From a virus: a stretch of DNA of 64,000 nt. A program made the position numbers and the translations under genes. This document shows, one piece after another, positions 2,650 to 58,212 of this stretch. The number at the start of each line of letters is the position of its first letter. The stretch's first letter is position 1. Below the pieces are notes generated by a model. The model did no database searches. It was not told where the DNA came from and was given only the letters and a program-made list of their open reading frames with translations. The DNA is taken from the IMG/VR virus record IMGVR_UViG_3300030419_003950, positions 3,346 through 67,345 of that record, one strand, 5' to 3'.

Positions 2650-3402
2650 TTATCTCCAATCCCATATTTTAAATGCATTATAAGTTACACCAAATCCTAC
2701 AACAGGCTCTGTCAATCCTGTTACTTGGTCATATGTTATACCAATAAACGGCCCTACACTTATTTGGTTCCTCGGTGGTTTAATTTTAAATGGACTACTT
2801 TTTCTACCATTCAACCTTAAACCATCAAATTGTATTGTAGGAACTTCTGCATAATACTCACCTTTTACTTCACCCTCAACAATCTTAGGTTCTCCGATTT
2901 CTAAACTACCATCAAAACCTAATTCAGTTTCAGAATCCACAATACTATCATTAACTATTGCAACACCAGTTCTACCAAATATTCTAAGGTAGGAACTTTG
3001 TGTACCAAACTCCTTTTCAAATGGAACTACACCAGCACCACTTGAATAAGAGTTGTTATTATCATAAATAGATACTTTTTGAGAAAGTTGTTTTTTGATA
3101 GTATCAAGTTGAATCTCAAAGTTATCCATCCTATTTTTTAATTCTTTGTTTTCTATACCACGAGTTTTATCATGGTCATGTAAATCCTTTAGTAAATCAT
3201 TATTTTGTTTTACTAAAATCTCAACAGAGTCTTGTAACTCTGTAATCATTACATCTTGTCTTGCAGAATCGTCTCTCAAGAATTCCATTTCTTCTTGAGC
3301 ATAATAATAACGAACTCCTACCACACATAATATAAAAAGTATGTTGAGAAAACCACCAATGACCCACTCTCTTCTTTTTTGTGGCCAATGTTTTAATAAC
3401 AT
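2650..3402 (-). CDS. Membrane-anchored coiled-coil protein with C-terminal amphipathic beta-hairpin (spanin-like candidate)
   Basis: N-terminal TM, coiled coil, C-terminal ISVGPFIGITYD...PVVGFGVTYN. Confidence 0.45.
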   Translation of the reverse strand: MLLKHWPQKRREWVIGGFLNILFILCVVGVRYYYAQEEMEFLRDDSARQDVMITELQDSVEILVKQNNDLLKDLHDHDKTRGIENKELKNRMDNFEIQLDTIKKQLSQKVSIYDNNNSYSSGAGVVPFEKEFGTQSSYLRIFGRTGVAIVNDSIVDSETELGFDGSLEIGEPKIVEGEVKGEYYAEVPTIQFDGLRLNGRKSSPFKIKPPRNQISVGPFIGITYDQVTGLTEPVVGFGVTYNAFKIWDWR

Positions 3403-30240: not shown

Positions 30241-30268
30241 ATTATTATAACCTTTTTCATTTTTATTG

Positions 30269-30679
30269 TGGAGCTGGTGGGAGTCGAACCCACGTCCAGT
30301 CTGCCTTTACTAAAGAGTCATTCACAACTTAGTTTAGTTCCAAATCGGTAGTCACTAACAACCCACCATGTCCCATTTTACTCAGAATGGTTTAACTAAG
30401 ATTTCATTTATACTCTAAACCTGAAGTGAGTTCGTGTTCAACTTATTTTATGCTCGGGTGTTGAACAACCCAAGAACTTATGCGTAAGCGTAAGTTGGTT
30501 GGTAGTCTTGAGCCATTACTGGTTCAGCAACTGGAACATCTATTTCGAATAGATGCCAATCTATTACCAACCCGTCAAGCGATAATTCGCCAATTGAGTT
30601 TGTGGGATTTTTTCTAAGACCTTCCCAATCTCTGTTGCACTCTGTTATTAAATAACACCTGTCGATACCAAGCAGCCCC
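30269..30679 (-). ncRNA. ssrA: tmRNA
   Basis: 5' GGGGCTG..GGTATCGAC; 3' GGACGTGGGTTCGACTCCCACCAGCTCCA; G3-U Ala acceptor; PK1 (TGGGA/TCCCA); tag ORF 30591-30478. Confidence 0.93.
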
Positions 30680-35328: not shown

Positions 35329-35346
35329 TTTATTTCCTAAGTTTTG

Positions 35347-35420
35347 AGTGCAGGACTGGATTCGAACCAGCGAATAATGGTTTTGCAAACCACCCCATTA
35401 GACCACTCTGGCACCTGCAC
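35347..35420 (-). tRNA. tRNA-Cys(GCA)
   Basis: Cloverleaf GTGCAGG/CCTGCAC, anticodon loop TT-GCA-AA, GGTTCGAATCC, U73; CCA not encoded. Confidence 0.92.
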
Positions 35421-38565: not shown

Positions 38566-39099
38566 CTATATCCCTAATTGTTGCAAAATAAACTTACGAA
38601 AATTATCTTTTGAACCCTTATCTATATGTATCCAAGTCCATGCCCATGTAGTTTTAATCTTCGTTGTTGTATCTATAATAGCCTGTATTTGTTTTTCTAT
38701 TTCGATAATCATCTCATCATCGATTGGTACTTCTAAATCCATTTCATCTGCCATTTCTAACAATGCACCAAAATCTTTATTTCTATTAGCTTCATTAGCC
38801 TTTTTAAATTTATCTTCATCTCCATCCTTTTTATCAGGATGTGTTTTACCAGCCACCTTACGATAAACCTTTCTGAAAGTATCTTCTTCAACTTCTGTTT
38901 GTATCTTTTCAAATGGGTCTTTTTCAGGTTTAGTTGTTGGTGTTGGTGTGCCTCCTGAAAGATAAGAAGAAAAGTCTGCATTAAACTTTTCCAAACATTG
39001 TTTATATATAATTTTAGTTTCTTCTAATTCAGTTTGTAGATATCGTAACTTGTGTCTAATTTTTTTTCGTTTTAACTCGTTGACATTATTCATATTCAA
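38566..39099 (-). CDS. J-domain (DnaJ-like) protein
   Basis: YRKVAGKTHPDK motif. Confidence 0.75.
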   Translation of the reverse strand: MNMNNVNELKRKKIRHKLRYLQTELEETKIIYKQCLEKFNADFSSYLSGGTPTPTTKPEKDPFEKIQTEVEEDTFRKVYRKVAGKTHPDKKDGDEDKFKKANEANRNKDFGALLEMADEMDLEVPIDDEMIIEIEKQIQAIIDTTTKIKTTWAWTWIHIDKGSKDNFRKFILQQLGI

Positions 39100-39113
39100 T
39101 AAATATTGTATTT

Positions 39114-39440
39114 GCGTAGTATTCCGTTACTTATTTCAAATTCTTCCGACTTTTTGCTATATCAAAAAATCTCAATTCGTAACTACCACCTCTGGTCTAC
39201 AACCCAGCCTAACTTGTAGTAGCTACCGATGATACTTGTGTTAGGGTCATCTCCTGTTGGCTTTGCTTTGACTCTACTAAAGTTCCCATCGGAACTTATC
39301 ATTGTAGGTGATATATATGAACAAATATATTTGTATCTGCCAATACTACCCGCAAGGACTTTTGTTCGGTCACTAATCCGAAACCTTTTCACCCACATGG
39401 AAAACAACAAAACCCTTTCGGGTAAACAAAGAAATCACCT
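39114..39440 (-). ncRNA. Candidate highly structured non-coding RNA, ~330 nt
   Basis: Multiple hairpins, long-range stems and pseudoknot complementarities (see findings); no credible ORF. Confidence 0.55.
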
Positions 39441-39443
39441 CAA

Positions 39444-39647
39444 TTATGTTTCTTGATTTATATCTTCAAATTCTGCTTCAATAAGTTTCATACATATATA
39501 AAATGTATCATCTCTTCTCAAGACGGCATCAGCCAATCCCCACATACCTTTTAATTGTTCTGGAGTGTAACCAGATTTAACCGATACCGTCCCAAGTATT
39601 TGAAACCTATCCTCTCCGATTGTGATAAATTCTTTTATAAGAATTAT
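39444..39647 (-). CDS. 67-aa hypothetical protein with apparent non-canonical ATA start
   Basis: Open frame IILIKEFITIGEDRFQILG...EDINQET fills the gap after hsp20. Confidence 0.45.
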   Translation of the reverse strand: MILIKEFITIGEDRFQILGTVSVKSGYTPEQLKGMWGLADAVLRRDDTFYICMKLIEAEFEDINQET

Positions 39648-40120
39648 CCAATCTTAACAGAATGTTTTTTCGGTTTTTCTGGTTCTATCTTTGGAATAGA
39701 AACTGAAAGAATCCCATCTTTGAAATTAGCTGAAATATTTTCACCATCCAACATATCACCTAATTCAAATTGTCTTTTGAATGAAGACTGCTTTAATTCT
39801 CTACGAATTACTTTAGCACCCTCAGCATCAAAAGAACTATGTTTATCTCCAGAGATAGTTAAGATACCTTCTTCAACATCAACACTTAATTGTTTCTTGT
39901 CGAGTCCTGGAATCTCAGCTACAACTCCAACTTTGTCATCGTATTCATATACATTGACTTTTGGATAAGCCGTGCCAGAGTATGGATTTACTCCAACTGA
40001 TTTTGTTATATCTGGAAATTGTGTTGACACGATTTGGTCAAACATTTTATCAAACGGGGTTAAAAAATCTTCCCTATCGATTACAGGGAAGCCACCTTTG
40101 TGAAAAGTAACTTTAGTCAT
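39644..40120 (-). CDS. Hsp20 / alpha-crystallin small heat-shock protein
   Basis: YPKVNV, EIPG, FKRQF and ANFKDGILSV motifs. Confidence 0.92.
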   Translation of the reverse strand: MTKVTFHKGGFPVIDREDFLTPFDKMFDQIVSTQFPDITKSVGVNPYSGTAYPKVNVYEYDDKVGVVAEIPGLDKKQLSVDVEEGILTISGDKHSSFDAEGAKVIRRELKQSSFKRQFELGDMLDGENISANFKDGILSVSIPKIEPEKPKKHSVKIG

Positions 40121-40423
40121 TTTATTTCTCCTTTGTTAACTTGTTAGTCTAACTGAATATTGATTCACATTGACATCAATATCCATCTCTTCATATCGAC
40201 CTCATTCGAGCGTCGAATCCTTTATTCAATAATAAATATATACTTATTGCCGAAAAATCAAATTTTTTTCAATAATTTTTTTGGTATCCAAACTATCTTA
40301 CCCATATCATCCGTTCCTTTAACCTTCTCATCATGTTGTTTTGATTCAAACAATTGTTCATCACATTTGATGATTGTATCCTTATGTATCATCCCTTCAA
40401 TAGTAGGATAATCGAATAATACC

Positions 40424-58130: not shown

Positions 58131-58139
58131 AAATTTTAG

Positions 58140-58212
58140 TGGAGCTGACAGGAATCGAACCTGCGACCTCCGCAGTGCAAGTGCGGCGCTCTCCCAACTG
58201 AGCTACAGCCCC
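58140..58212 (-). tRNA. tRNA-Ala(TGC)
   Basis: GGGGCTG acceptor with G3-U70, anticodon loop CT-TGC-AC, GGTTCGATTCC; CCA not encoded. Confidence 0.95.

Follow-up and report, generated by a model that had tools for sequence, protein, structure and literature searches.

A previously uncatalogued family of structured RNAs in one lineage of uncultured marine myoviruses

The window analyzed here is a stretch of 64,000 nucleotides of viral DNA (IMG/VR record IMGVR_UViG_3300030419_003950, positions 3,346 to 67,345), and its positions 39131–39462 on the minus strand are one copy of a conserved structured RNA that belongs to a previously uncatalogued family. The carriers of this RNA family are one lineage of uncultured marine myoviruses. 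The original prediction, made from the letters of the window, had placed a new large structured phage noncoding RNA at 39114–39440 on the minus strand, between hsp20 and a J-domain gene. Such an RNA is now documented by at least 54 homologues, strong covariation, the absence of a conserved reading frame and the absence of an Rfam 15 match. The element does lie in the predicted interval, although its true 5′ end is ~20 nt further upstream, whereas the tie to the J-domain gene was lost, since the same element is also found at other gene junctions. We consider it rather probable that the element works as a stand-alone folded RNA and that it forms an RNA-only accessory cassette within a hyperplastic region.

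The RNA Family

Two covariance half-models cover the element: R1 describes the 3′ core and R2 the 5′ domain. The sole match of R1 in the window is at 39131–39228 (94 bits), and R2 matches at 39356–39463 (73.2 bits). Homologues were found with nhmmer in 7 of the 81 related loci first examined. A 19-mer scan of viral contigs yielded nine stretches and a degenerate 19-mer scan of metagenome contigs at least 119, and 84 of 119 metagenome loci were true homologues among the matches listed by nhmmer. Once copies ≥97% alike had been removed, viral and marine metagenome contigs supplied at least 54 full-length, non-redundant copies, of which 29 are short (~245–270 nt) and 25, including the window copy, are long (~345–400 nt). 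The G+C content of the element is 0.375–0.41, compared with ~0.30 in its surroundings.

No known family accounts for this RNA, as the original prediction had anticipated. When the whole window was searched at gathering score with Rfam 15 (4227 models), the matches were a tmRNA and two tRNAs, all located elsewhere. At E ≤ 10, the region 38900–39750 gave five chance matches only (14–17 bits against cut-offs of 35–67), and the short relatives L234 and L287 gave no match at gathering score and chance matches alone at E ≤ 10. ARAGORN found the tmRNA (30268–30679) and the two tRNAs and nothing at 39100–39460, which rules out a tmRNA or tRNA-like RNA there. The region had no blastn match among 50,697 phage records. 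A degenerate pattern of the core occurred in 36 stretches of 185,579 species genomes, none of which matched R1 even at E ≤ 1; as far as this narrow, pattern-based test can tell, there is no cellular copy. The RNA is not described in the main texts that a limited set of word searches covered, and in that literature two 16-mers of the core appear in no paper and 10-mers in unrelated primer lists alone.

Secondary Structure

From 5′ to 3′, the element is built of P1, P2, P3, a junction, an optional insert, a core (Pb/Pc and a possible pseudoknot) and Pd. The parts are as follows.

39131–39462, minus strand: whole RNA element, long form with type-1 insert
39427–39455, minus strand: P1 hairpin, CAAGAAA (39449–39455) with UUUCUUUG (39427–39434), from covariation
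39413–39422, minus strand: P2 hairpin CCC-GAAA-GGG, followed by a U-rich tract (39399–39412)
39384–39393, minus strand: single-stranded conserved motif GGUGAAAAGG, from conserved alignment columns
39365–39383, minus strand: P3 hairpin UUCGG-AUUAGUGA-CCGAA, with conserved loop AUNAGYGA
39356–39363, minus strand: junction AAAAGUCC, nearly invariant in the alignment of 54 sequences
39246–39355, minus strand: optional type-1 insert, present in 19 of the 54 copies collected
39240–39245, minus strand: 5′ strand of the possible pseudoknot, CCUAAC, complementary to GUUAGG (39208–39213)
39179–39226, minus strand: core Pb/Pc, from covariation; RNAalifold recovers Pb and Pc on its own
39216–39226 with 39179–39189, minus strand: Pb stem, GUAGCUACUAC with GUGGUAGUUAC, 10–11 bp
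39192–39207, minus strand: Pc hairpin CUGG-GUUGUAGA-CCAG, with invariant loop GUUGUAGA
39148–39171, minus strand: Pd hairpin GAUUUUUUG-AUAUAG-CAAAAAGUC, with conserved loop
39131–39147, minus strand: A/U-rich conserved tail GGAAGAAUUUGAAAUAA, from the alignment

All pairings named in the original prediction are present in the window on the minus strand. Folding energy is a weak guide and does not separate the strands (z of -2.57 for the minus and -2.47 for the plus strand), so that the comparison with relatives decides. In that comparison, seven helices are kept through compensatory changes. Because the alignments were fitted to the covariance models, pair counts are biased toward the structure. 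Paired cells make up 85.1% of the R1 alignment, which has 81 matches (71 distinct), versus 32–53% when the partners are slid, and in the R2 alignment (62 matches, 58 distinct) 88.7% pair versus at most 54.7%. Both sides change in 23 of 26 pairs of R1 and in 10 of 17 pairs of R2. The covariation score of R1 is 0.489 versus at most 0.099 for slid partners, and the observed value was reached by 0 of 500 shuffles on four of five measures and by 1 of 500 on the fifth. RNAalifold predicted 16 pairs from the R1 alignment, 14 of them with compensatory change; when the whole short copies were simply aligned with MAFFT, it found almost nothing, because the helices are out of register between sequence classes. 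G-U pairs outnumber A-C combinations (170 vs 62, and 28 vs 13); therefore, the minus strand is the one that folds, in agreement with the strand preference first read from the window.

The P1 loop contains the stop codon of the upstream small ORF, the -10-like CAUAAU (39443–39448) and AGGUGAU. Complementarity of its stem is kept in four sequence classes (CAAGAAA/UUUCUUG, GAAAAC/GUUUUC, GAAAG(A)C/GCUUUC and AAAAUGAA/UUCAUUUU), with both sides changing in 4 of 6 pairs. P2 takes the form CCAC-UUCG-GUGG or CCCAA-AACUUC-UUGGG in relatives, where both sides change in 3 of 5 pairs. The GGUGAAAAGG motif reads GAGUGARAGG in most relatives. In P3, 96.8% of cells pair and both sides change in 3 of 6 pairs. 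Both of these predicted hairpins, P2 and P3, thus gain support from compensatory change. Junction columns A102, A103, G104, T105 and C107 are invariant in 54 sequences.

In the core, the Pb stem encloses AA, GUUAGG (39208–39213) and the Pc hairpin. The 11-bp stem of the original prediction, Pb, changes on both sides in 9 of 10 pairs, and the hairpin it drew near the 3′ end, Pd, does so in 9 of 9; compensatory change supports both. Pc changes on both sides in 2 of 4 pairs (G-C to U-A and G-C to A-U). UAGGC and GGUUGUAGAC are invariant in 54 copies, as is UAU.G within the Pd loop among its aligned sequences, and no helix was found in the alignments for the tail GGAAGAAUUUGAAAUAA. An H-type pseudoknot between CCUAAC and GUUAGG, also predicted, is plausible but unproven: the two strands are conserved and complementary, with 92% of cells pairing, but four of the six pairs never vary, an A-U to U-A exchange is seen in three sequences of a single clade only, and the observed covariation values are reached by shuffles and are not significant.

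The Optional Insert and Rejected Pairings

The type-1 insert contains AUCACCU and a CUAC/GUAG helix around GUUCC-GAUG-GGAAC. In the window, it also has a ACAAAUAUAUUUGU hairpin of its own where relatives have a second GUUGUAGA-loop hairpin. Compensatory change was seen in 2 of 23 predicted pairs of the insert, few because the 19 copies are too alike. The predicted long-range pairing of AGGUGAU (39434–39440) with AUCACCU (39306–39312) involves complementary, nearly invariant strands, which form 7 bp in the window and 3–7 bp in each of 18 further type-1 long copies compared, but permuted partners pair equally well (mean 5.13 vs 5.16). The hairpin GUUCC-GAUG-GGAAC (39282–39295) is present and conserved; being nearly invariant, it is neither proven nor refuted by comparison.

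Three other pairings of the original prediction are peculiar to the window and find no support in relatives. Both GUAGUAUU (39342–39349) with AAUACUAC (39116–39123) and the alternative CCGAUG/CAUCGG pairing are attributed to chance because their partner strands are not complementary in relatives. ACAAA/UUUGU (39321–39334) is likewise a chance hairpin, and relatives have a different one in its place. Also rejected was a helix that would join the U-rich linker to the 3′ tail; it fits L038 and L019 and not the other relatives.

Coding Potential

The element does not encode a protein. No conserved ORF was found in it: all six frames are broken by stops in 52 of 54 copies, which rules out a protein-coding gene and answers the concern that codon-like conservation might lie behind the similarity. 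The sense frames contained 3–14 stops each in the 16 copies inspected, and the copy lengths fall into all three classes modulo 3 (13, 26 and 15 copies). In the window copy, either strand carries 75-aa ORFs.

Genomic Setting and Boundaries

Three neighboring features on the minus strand define the setting in the window.

39444–39620, minus strand: upstream small conserved ORF (sm), whose last codons and stop lie inside P1
39099–39130, minus strand: spacer with promoter-like hexamers and ATAYTTAT (39099–39106), directly before the J-domain gene
38566–39099, minus strand: downstream J-domain gene (jd), with a Pfam DnaJ match (E 3.1e-06) just under the cut-off

The start of the J-domain gene, read by homology, is likely the ATG at 39093. 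The neighbors include heat-shock-type genes, namely HSP20 and the J domain. Matches to the small ORF were found by tblastn in 75 of 81 loci; neither Pfam nor PHROGs gave a family for sm or for the neighbors o60 and mp, and the Protein Atlas gave no usable match for sm. In 53 non-redundant loci, the element lies between sm and jd (18), sm and mp (15), jd and mp (14) or sm and o60 (1), and in five the junction is cut by a contig end. Of the 48 loci with both flanks, 18 thus have jd downstream of the element, 29 have mp and one has o60. All flanking protein matches (451 of 451 in 112 loci) are on the strand of the element. A leader or riboswitch of the J-domain gene is rejected, since the downstream gene varies and a promoter-like motif lies in between.

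The distribution of the element is patchy, that of an accessory cassette within one phage lineage. R1 matches are found in 7 of 80 hsp20-anchored and 12 of 80 J-domain-anchored loci. None is found in five large related records, which include one of 216 kb that is 100% complete. In five relatives without the element, the gap between sm and the J-domain gene is 3–13 nt, and in eight other relatives the slot holds a small ORF. Judged by its PhoH protein, which reaches at most 38% identity among the 12 records listed, with every match <60%, the phage has only distant relatives among cultured phages.

Homology between contexts starts ~20 nt before P1, so that two unrelated upstream ORFs end in the same C-terminal tail, KDLT[DE][KE]KTKN. 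It stops directly after ATAYTTATTA. Empty sites have a similar A/T-rich motif at the same place, with exact ATAYTTAT in L001 only. The spacer at 39099–39130 probably lies outside the RNA, and no conserved helix was found in it. In relatives it reads TTGAC(G/A/T)-17-TATACT, of which the window has a weak copy (7/12).

Signals for Expression

The 5′ end has sigma-70-like hexamers in a constant position (TTAACA-18-TAAAAT, TTGAAG-18-CATAAT). Hexamers scoring ≥8/12 are present at the 5′ end of 45 of 54 copies and at the 3′ end of 31 of 54. The window shows no enrichment of the strict promoter motif (1 per strand vs 2.6 simulated), and consensus scans gave no excess over shuffles. If the 5′ hexamers were a real promoter, transcription would begin within the P1 loop, leaving P1 unable to form; an internal promoter thus conflicts with the covariation of P1. 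P2 with its U tract has the look of a weak intrinsic terminator, and a consensus scan flagged P2 as terminator-like in two relatives. If it were efficient, transcription would end before the core. Contigs of RNA libraries cover 39251–39431 (1 mismatch), and one joins the small ORF to the element (39383–39549, 0 mismatches); these are assembled contigs of four RNA libraries at a depth of 2–4, they allow for DNA contamination, and they carry no ends, strand or level. Positions 38635–39103 and the 3′ part of the element are uncovered in some RNA runs, which is uninformative.

Possible Functions

The element occupies a slot between co-oriented transcription units in a hyperplastic region of hsp20, small-ORF, J-domain and membrane-protein genes. 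Its 5′ end overlaps the stop of the upstream ORF, whichever ORF that is, and its 3′ end abuts the promoter-like motif of the next gene. The RNA would be transcribed together with, or just after, the upstream gene and would then work, possibly in trans, as a free-standing fold rather than as leader or riboswitch for the J-domain gene. The invariant GUUGUAGA, AUAUAG, AUNAGYGA and AAGUCC/UAGGC segments may recognize a protein or another RNA. A bolder proposal, which we hold to be possible but doubtful, is that the family represents a new functional class of phage accessory RNA without a phage-encoded protein partner. It would be a ribozyme, or else a decoy or scaffold that engages a host factor, during host takeover or counter-defence for instance, and would spread between related phages by recombination at the promoter motifs; GUUGUAGA, AUAUAG and AAGUCC/UAGGC would be its active or binding site, and the optional domains would tune it to different hosts.

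Two other explanations tie the element to its neighbors. It could be a cis-acting control element, that is, a conditional terminator or antiterminator that senses temperature or a ligand and governs how far transcription of the hsp20/small-ORF or J-domain unit continues into the following gene. The invariable position between co-oriented genes, the terminator-like P2 and U tract, the heat-shock-type neighbors and the GUCCUA 5′ strand, which in many short copies can pair with either of two UAGG sites as a possible switch, would all suit such a role. We nevertheless find it unlikely, since the genes downstream vary (jd, mp, o60) and each keeps its own promoter-like motif after the element, since relatives have the same genes without it at gaps of 3–13 nt, and since the greater part of the conserved structure lies 3′ of the terminator-like hairpin, the wrong order for a riboswitch. 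Slightly lower still we place a structured 3′ UTR of the upstream gene that ends the transcript and either shields it from 3′ exonucleases or guides its processing, with no function of its own. An element of 245–400 nt with seven covarying helices and invariant loops of 6–10 nt goes far beyond the needs of a 3′ end; moreover, the upstream gene may be sm or jd, and the same genes in relatives do without the element. What speaks for a 3′ UTR is that P1 and the stop codon of the upstream ORF overlap in all contexts, that one RNA-library contig links the small ORF with the element, and that the covariation of P1 implies transcripts starting upstream of P1.

The remaining explanations concern the RNA itself. 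A ribozyme, self-cleaving or acting on other RNA, with the invariant AAGUCC, UAGGC and GGUUGUAGAC core as its active site, is improbable: no Rfam ribozyme family matches, even at E ≤ 10 on 331–851 nt, no cleavage-site signature was identified, and the pseudoknot is unproven. In favor of a ribozyme are an invariant core set amid freely covarying helices and the optional peripheral domains, a common trait of ribozymes and of large RNAs in general. The strands of the pseudoknot, in the order 5′ strand, Pb 5′, 3′ strand, hairpin, Pb 3′, are also arranged much like the nested knots of known ribozymes. The notion that there is no functional RNA here, only a decaying gene or a chance-folding, A/T-poor spacer, could draw on the 75-aa ORFs of the window copy and on the modest folding z-score; it has next to no credibility, being already refuted by the six-frame stops in 52 of 54 copies, lengths that are not multiples of three, strong covariation and strand-specific G-U pairs.

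To our knowledge, few phage-encoded structured RNAs of such size are known, and almost none has a known role. The present family offers dozens of natural short and long variants, a helix map, an invariant core and genomes with and without the element for testing. Should the RNA act in trans on a factor of the host or of the phage, an RNA-only item would join the fast-shuffling accessory gene sets that adapt phages to hosts, and such cassettes would be shown able to carry RNAs as well as ORFs. If it is only a 3′ end or read-through element, it would be an unusually elaborate one and would bear on how transcription units are separated in abundant marine phages.

Comparison with Known Systems

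Parts of the element recall well-known RNAs. The order of CCUAAC, Pb 5′, GUUAGG, Pc and Pb 3′ resembles the order P3, P7, P3′, P8 and P7′ of group I introns, and in RNase P RNA conserved regions resemble both the GUGAAAGG-hairpin motif and AAAGUCC, which is nearly invariant here, while P4 resembles a possible AG(U)CCUAAC/GUUAGGCU pairing with a bulged U. The original prediction had found no RNase P or group I signature, a view upheld by the absence of Rfam matches and of the defining features. A group I intron is rejected because no Rfam group I model matches, the short copies have ~10–20 unpaired or weakly paired nt where P4–P6 would be expected, the optional insert lies 5′ of CCUAAC and not after it, and the element is intergenic, with intact flanking ORFs 3–13 nt apart in empty relatives; unlike that of the group I core, the stem has 10–11 bp. 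RNase P RNA is rejected because no bacterial, archaeal or nuclear model matches at E ≤ 10, the order of the motifs is reversed with respect to the canonical order, long copies have a whole domain inserted at the "bulge," and the knot lies inside Pb and not within a P1–P2 frame. An HDV-like fold was dismissed in the absence of its defining features and of a model match. GUUGUAGAU resembles the 3′ half of a Cas12a repeat; the complementary 5′ half is absent.

Closer parallels in kind are the large orphan structured RNAs of phages and metagenomes, such as GOLLD, ROOL and HEARO (cryo-EM preprint 10.1101/2024.12.08.627333). These and similar RNAs are all in Rfam, and the element matches none of them. 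The element differs in being smaller (245–400 nt) and confined to one locus of one phage lineage, and it resembles them in being phage-borne, long for a bacterial ncRNA, modular with optional domains and supported by covariation.

The setting is close to that of the PeSL cassettes, which combine a terminator and a promoter in a composite motif and shuffle genes within the hyperplastic regions of T4-type phages (PMC2839356; PMC4122927). There are differences. Unlike in PeSL, the cargo here is a structured RNA and not an ORF, the promoters are putative and their strict hexamer motif shows no enrichment in the window, and cultured phages are only distant relatives of this one; in addition, Pd, beside the promoter-like motif, has an invariant loop that a plain terminator does not need. 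One feature of such cassettes, a place in a variable region with indels between close relatives at the motif, is found here. As described for PeSL, a variable slot between conserved genes occurs in empty, RNA-filled and ORF-filled versions among close relatives; sigma-70-like hexamers and an A/T-rich stretch, with a stem-loop just upstream, are followed by a Shine-Dalgarno sequence and the next start; and homology breaks at the motifs.

Locus and source phage

The source is an uncultured marine myovirus, represented by a 67-kb fragment that is ~36% complete and encodes a baseplate wedge protein, a carbamoyltransferase, PhoH, a tmRNA and two tRNAs. Among the 12 phage records listed, its PhoH reaches at most 38% identity, and every match stays below 60%. 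The space between hsp20 and the J-domain gene spans 545 nt on the minus strand (39100–39643). Since a small ORF takes up the first part of it, the non-coding stretch is ~340 nt long, and its G+C content is 0.375–0.41 compared with ~0.30 in the surroundings.

Features of the locus and of the phage fragment
39644–40120, minus strand: hsp20
39444 to about 39620, minus strand: small ORF, found in 75/81 related loci
39131–39462, minus strand: structured RNA element
38566–39099, minus strand: J-domain gene
30266–30679, minus strand: full-length tmRNA gene (Rfam 75.9 bits; ARAGORN tag peptide AQDYQPTYAYA)
35346–35420: tRNA-Cys
58139–58212: tRNA-Ala

The small ORF directly after hsp20 (...SGYTPEQLKGMWGLADAVL...EAEFED) is widely conserved, being present in 75 of the 81 related loci, has no obvious ATG start and matches nothing in Pfam, PHROG or Atlas. 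Upstream of hsp20 lies an intergenic leader of ~137 nt (40121–40257, minus strand), which begins near an ATAYTTAT motif (40239) and is a candidate regulatory leader; it could, for example, be an RNA thermometer.

An RNA family in phage and metagenome contigs

The element is a member of a real family of structured RNAs, which is undescribed as far as Rfam 15 and a limited literature check show. Homologues were found with nhmmer, using the window's element as query, in 7 of 81 loci fetched via hsp20 or the J-domain protein, always in the same slot. The exact core 19-mer occurs in nine viral stretches (four of them on further contigs) and its degenerate form in at least 119 metagenome stretches, among which at least 84 loci are true homologues; the same degenerate pattern matched 36 stretches in 185,579 species genomes, with no homologue among them. 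Once copies at least 97% alike were dropped, at least 54 full-length copies remained, including the window's. In this 54-copy set, 29 are short (245–269 nt trimmed) and 25 are long (345–399 nt), the latter carrying an extra domain of type 1 (19 copies) or type 2 (6 copies). The window's copy (356 nt) is a long variant of the family with a type-1 domain.

A covariance model of the 3′ core, R1, matched 7/80 hsp20-anchored and 12/80 J-domain-anchored loci, and none of five large related records without the element at the locus, one of which is a complete 216-kb genome. A divergent copy (L061 2295–2643, the same as L095) retains both the 5′ domain and hairpin Pd (38.6 bits with R1; 43.8 bits with R2, the model of the 5′ domain), but its middle part differs and lacks the GUUAGG/GUUGUAGA core. 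The R1 match at L070 3290–3389 is borderline (E 0.9).

No known family is reached at gathering score in Rfam 15, and at E ≤ 10 neither the window copy nor either of two short relatives yields more than chance matches. The element has no blastn match in phage records, and a limited check of the literature found no description of the RNA. Codon-like conservation was likewise not found: 52/54 copies have stops in all six frames and copy lengths spread over all three classes modulo 3. The 75-aa ORFs of the window are therefore spurious.

Covariation and structure

Folding energy alone is unconvincing and the same on either strand (z −2.57 and −2.47); thus, the verdict rests on comparison with relatives. 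Two half-models, R1 and R2, were used instead of one model of the whole short form. In the R1 alignment (81 matches, 71 distinct), 85.1% of cells are paired compared with 32–53% when partners are slid by 1–3 columns, and the covariation score is 0.489 compared with at most 0.099. Shuffles reached the observed values in 0/500 cases on four of five measures and in 1/500 on the fifth. Both sides change in 23 of 26 pairs: nine of ten in Pb, the predicted 11-bp stem; nine of nine in Pd, predicted as the hairpin GAUUUUUUG/CAAAAAGUC; two of four in Pc (CUGG-GUUGUAGA-CCAG); and three of three in an optional hairpin missing in the window copy. When RNAalifold was applied to the same alignment, 14 of the 16 pairs that it predicted by itself showed compensatory change. 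The R2 alignment (62 matches, none from seven loci added as negatives) has 88.7% of cells paired compared with at most 54.7% slid, and both-side changes in 10/17 pairs. It backs CCC-GAAA-GGG (P2) and UUCGG/CCGAA (P3), and also P1 (39449–39455 with 39427–39434), a helix overlooked by the original prediction that has four different sequence versions. Both alignments were fitted to their models and are biased towards structure. Even so, two results speak for a real covariation signal: the controls with slid partners, and the independent prediction by RNAalifold. The proposed minus-strand reading is confirmed by G-U pairs, which are more numerous than A-C mismatches (170 against 62, and 28 against 13).

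All pairings named in the original prediction occur in the sequence where it placed them, but those beyond Pb, Pd, P2 and P3 lack support from the comparison with relatives. CCUAAC and GUUAGG, the two strands of the pseudoknot, can pair in 92% of cells, yet shuffles match the observed values; four of the six pairs never vary, and A-U becomes U-A in one clade only (3 sequences). The pseudoknot is thus a plausible but unproven candidate. In many short copies its 5′ strand has an alternative local pairing with a second UAGG, which may be coincidental or may act as a switch. The long-range pairing AGGUGAU/AUCACCU forms 7 bp in the window and 3–7 bp in other type-1 long copies, but permuted partners do equally well (mean 5.13 against 5.16, in a set including four short copies) and only shuffled loops score lower (4.26). 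GUAGUAUU/AAUACUAC and CCGAUG/CAUCGG are confined to the window, and ACAAA/UUUGU is a window-specific substitute for a hairpin that bears a second GUUGUAGA loop in relatives. Within the insert of the window's copy, only 2 of the 23 pairs predicted for the inner fold have compensatory change, because the 19 copies are too similar.

Invariant or conserved single-stranded elements are GUUGUAGA, AUAUAG, AUNAGYGA and the AAGUCC/UAGGC junction. Type-1 long copies (e.g., L019 3247–3378) bear the invariant GUUGUAGA loop twice, in Pc and in the insert hairpin; the second has been lost from the window's copy.

Boundaries and neighbouring genes

All 451 flanking protein matches (112 loci) share the strand of the element. 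In a non-redundant set of 53 loci, the small ORF/J-domain junction holds the element in 18, the small ORF/membrane protein junction in 15, the J-domain/membrane protein junction in 14, and the junction of the small ORF with a 60-aa ORF in one; five loci are cut by contig ends. The gap from small ORF to J-domain gene is only 3–13 nt in five relatives, and in eight others a small protein gene fills the slot. Two kinds of small protein gene occur there, and both are alternative cargo in this variable region.

Alternative cargo in the small ORF/J-domain slot
~75 aa: L008, L018, L022, L024, L028, L032
~55 aa: L016, L080

Homology across contexts begins ~20 nt before P1, and two unrelated upstream ORFs therefore share the tail KDLT[DE][KE]KTKN. 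In L088, L091, L098, L263 and others, the tail terminates either the small ORF or the J-domain protein, and the stop codon that comes next lies within the P1 loop; where the RNA cassette comes next, the small ORF's C-terminus is swapped for cassette-encoded codons. Homology ends directly past ATAYTTATTA, beyond which the sequence goes with the downstream gene. The A/T-rich motif at empty sites is similar, matching ATAYTTAT exactly in L001 only. The gene strand of the window has 30 occurrences of ATAYTTAT and the other strand 16, often directly before gene starts; the motif is a candidate phage-specific promoter element without a −35 box. The final 40 nt of the element region in relatives read TTGAC(G/A/T)-17-TATACT, ahead of a Shine-Dalgarno sequence and a start codon.

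Examples of ATAYTTAT in the window
63725, 59565, 41981, 40239, 39106, 38562, 29900, 724, minus strand

Transcription and proposed role

The RNA could be co-transcribed with the upstream gene, for which P1 covariation and the upstream stop codon within the P1 loop speak, as does, weakly, one RNA-library contig spanning the small ORF and the element (39383–39549). Alternatively, it would have its own promoter and start inside the P1 loop near 39436. The hexamers of this putative promoter lie at a fixed position (at least 8/12 in 45/54 copies); consensus scans perform no better than shuffles, and the strict motif is not enriched in the window. Under either model, the next gene's own promoter-like motif stands 3′ of the element.

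The element might instead be a read-through control element, the 3′ end of the upstream mRNA, or a ribozyme. We favour a free-standing folded RNA because the next gene has that motif under either model, the J-domain gene is only one of three alternative neighbours, and the structure far exceeds a terminator's needs. This free-standing RNA would act through its invariant single-stranded parts (GUUGUAGA, AUAUAG, AUNAGYGA and the AAGUCC/UAGGC junction) and would travel as an accessory cassette. The family is a good experimental subject.

Comparison with known systems

In strand order the core is reminiscent of two knots, P3–P7 in group I introns and the nested one in HDV-like ribozymes, and AAAGUCC and the GUGAAAGG-hairpin are reminiscent of conserved regions of RNase P RNA. 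The element lacks the testable defining features of group I introns and RNase P, and no covariance model matched.

PeSLs are composite terminator/promoter motifs that shuffle genes in hyperplastic regions of T4-type phages (PMC4122927). The element's layout of promoter-like hexamers, Shine-Dalgarno sequence, start codon and homology break fits such motifs; the cargo at this locus is an RNA. The closest known systems are PeSL cassettes for the vehicle and the orphan large phage RNAs for the cargo.
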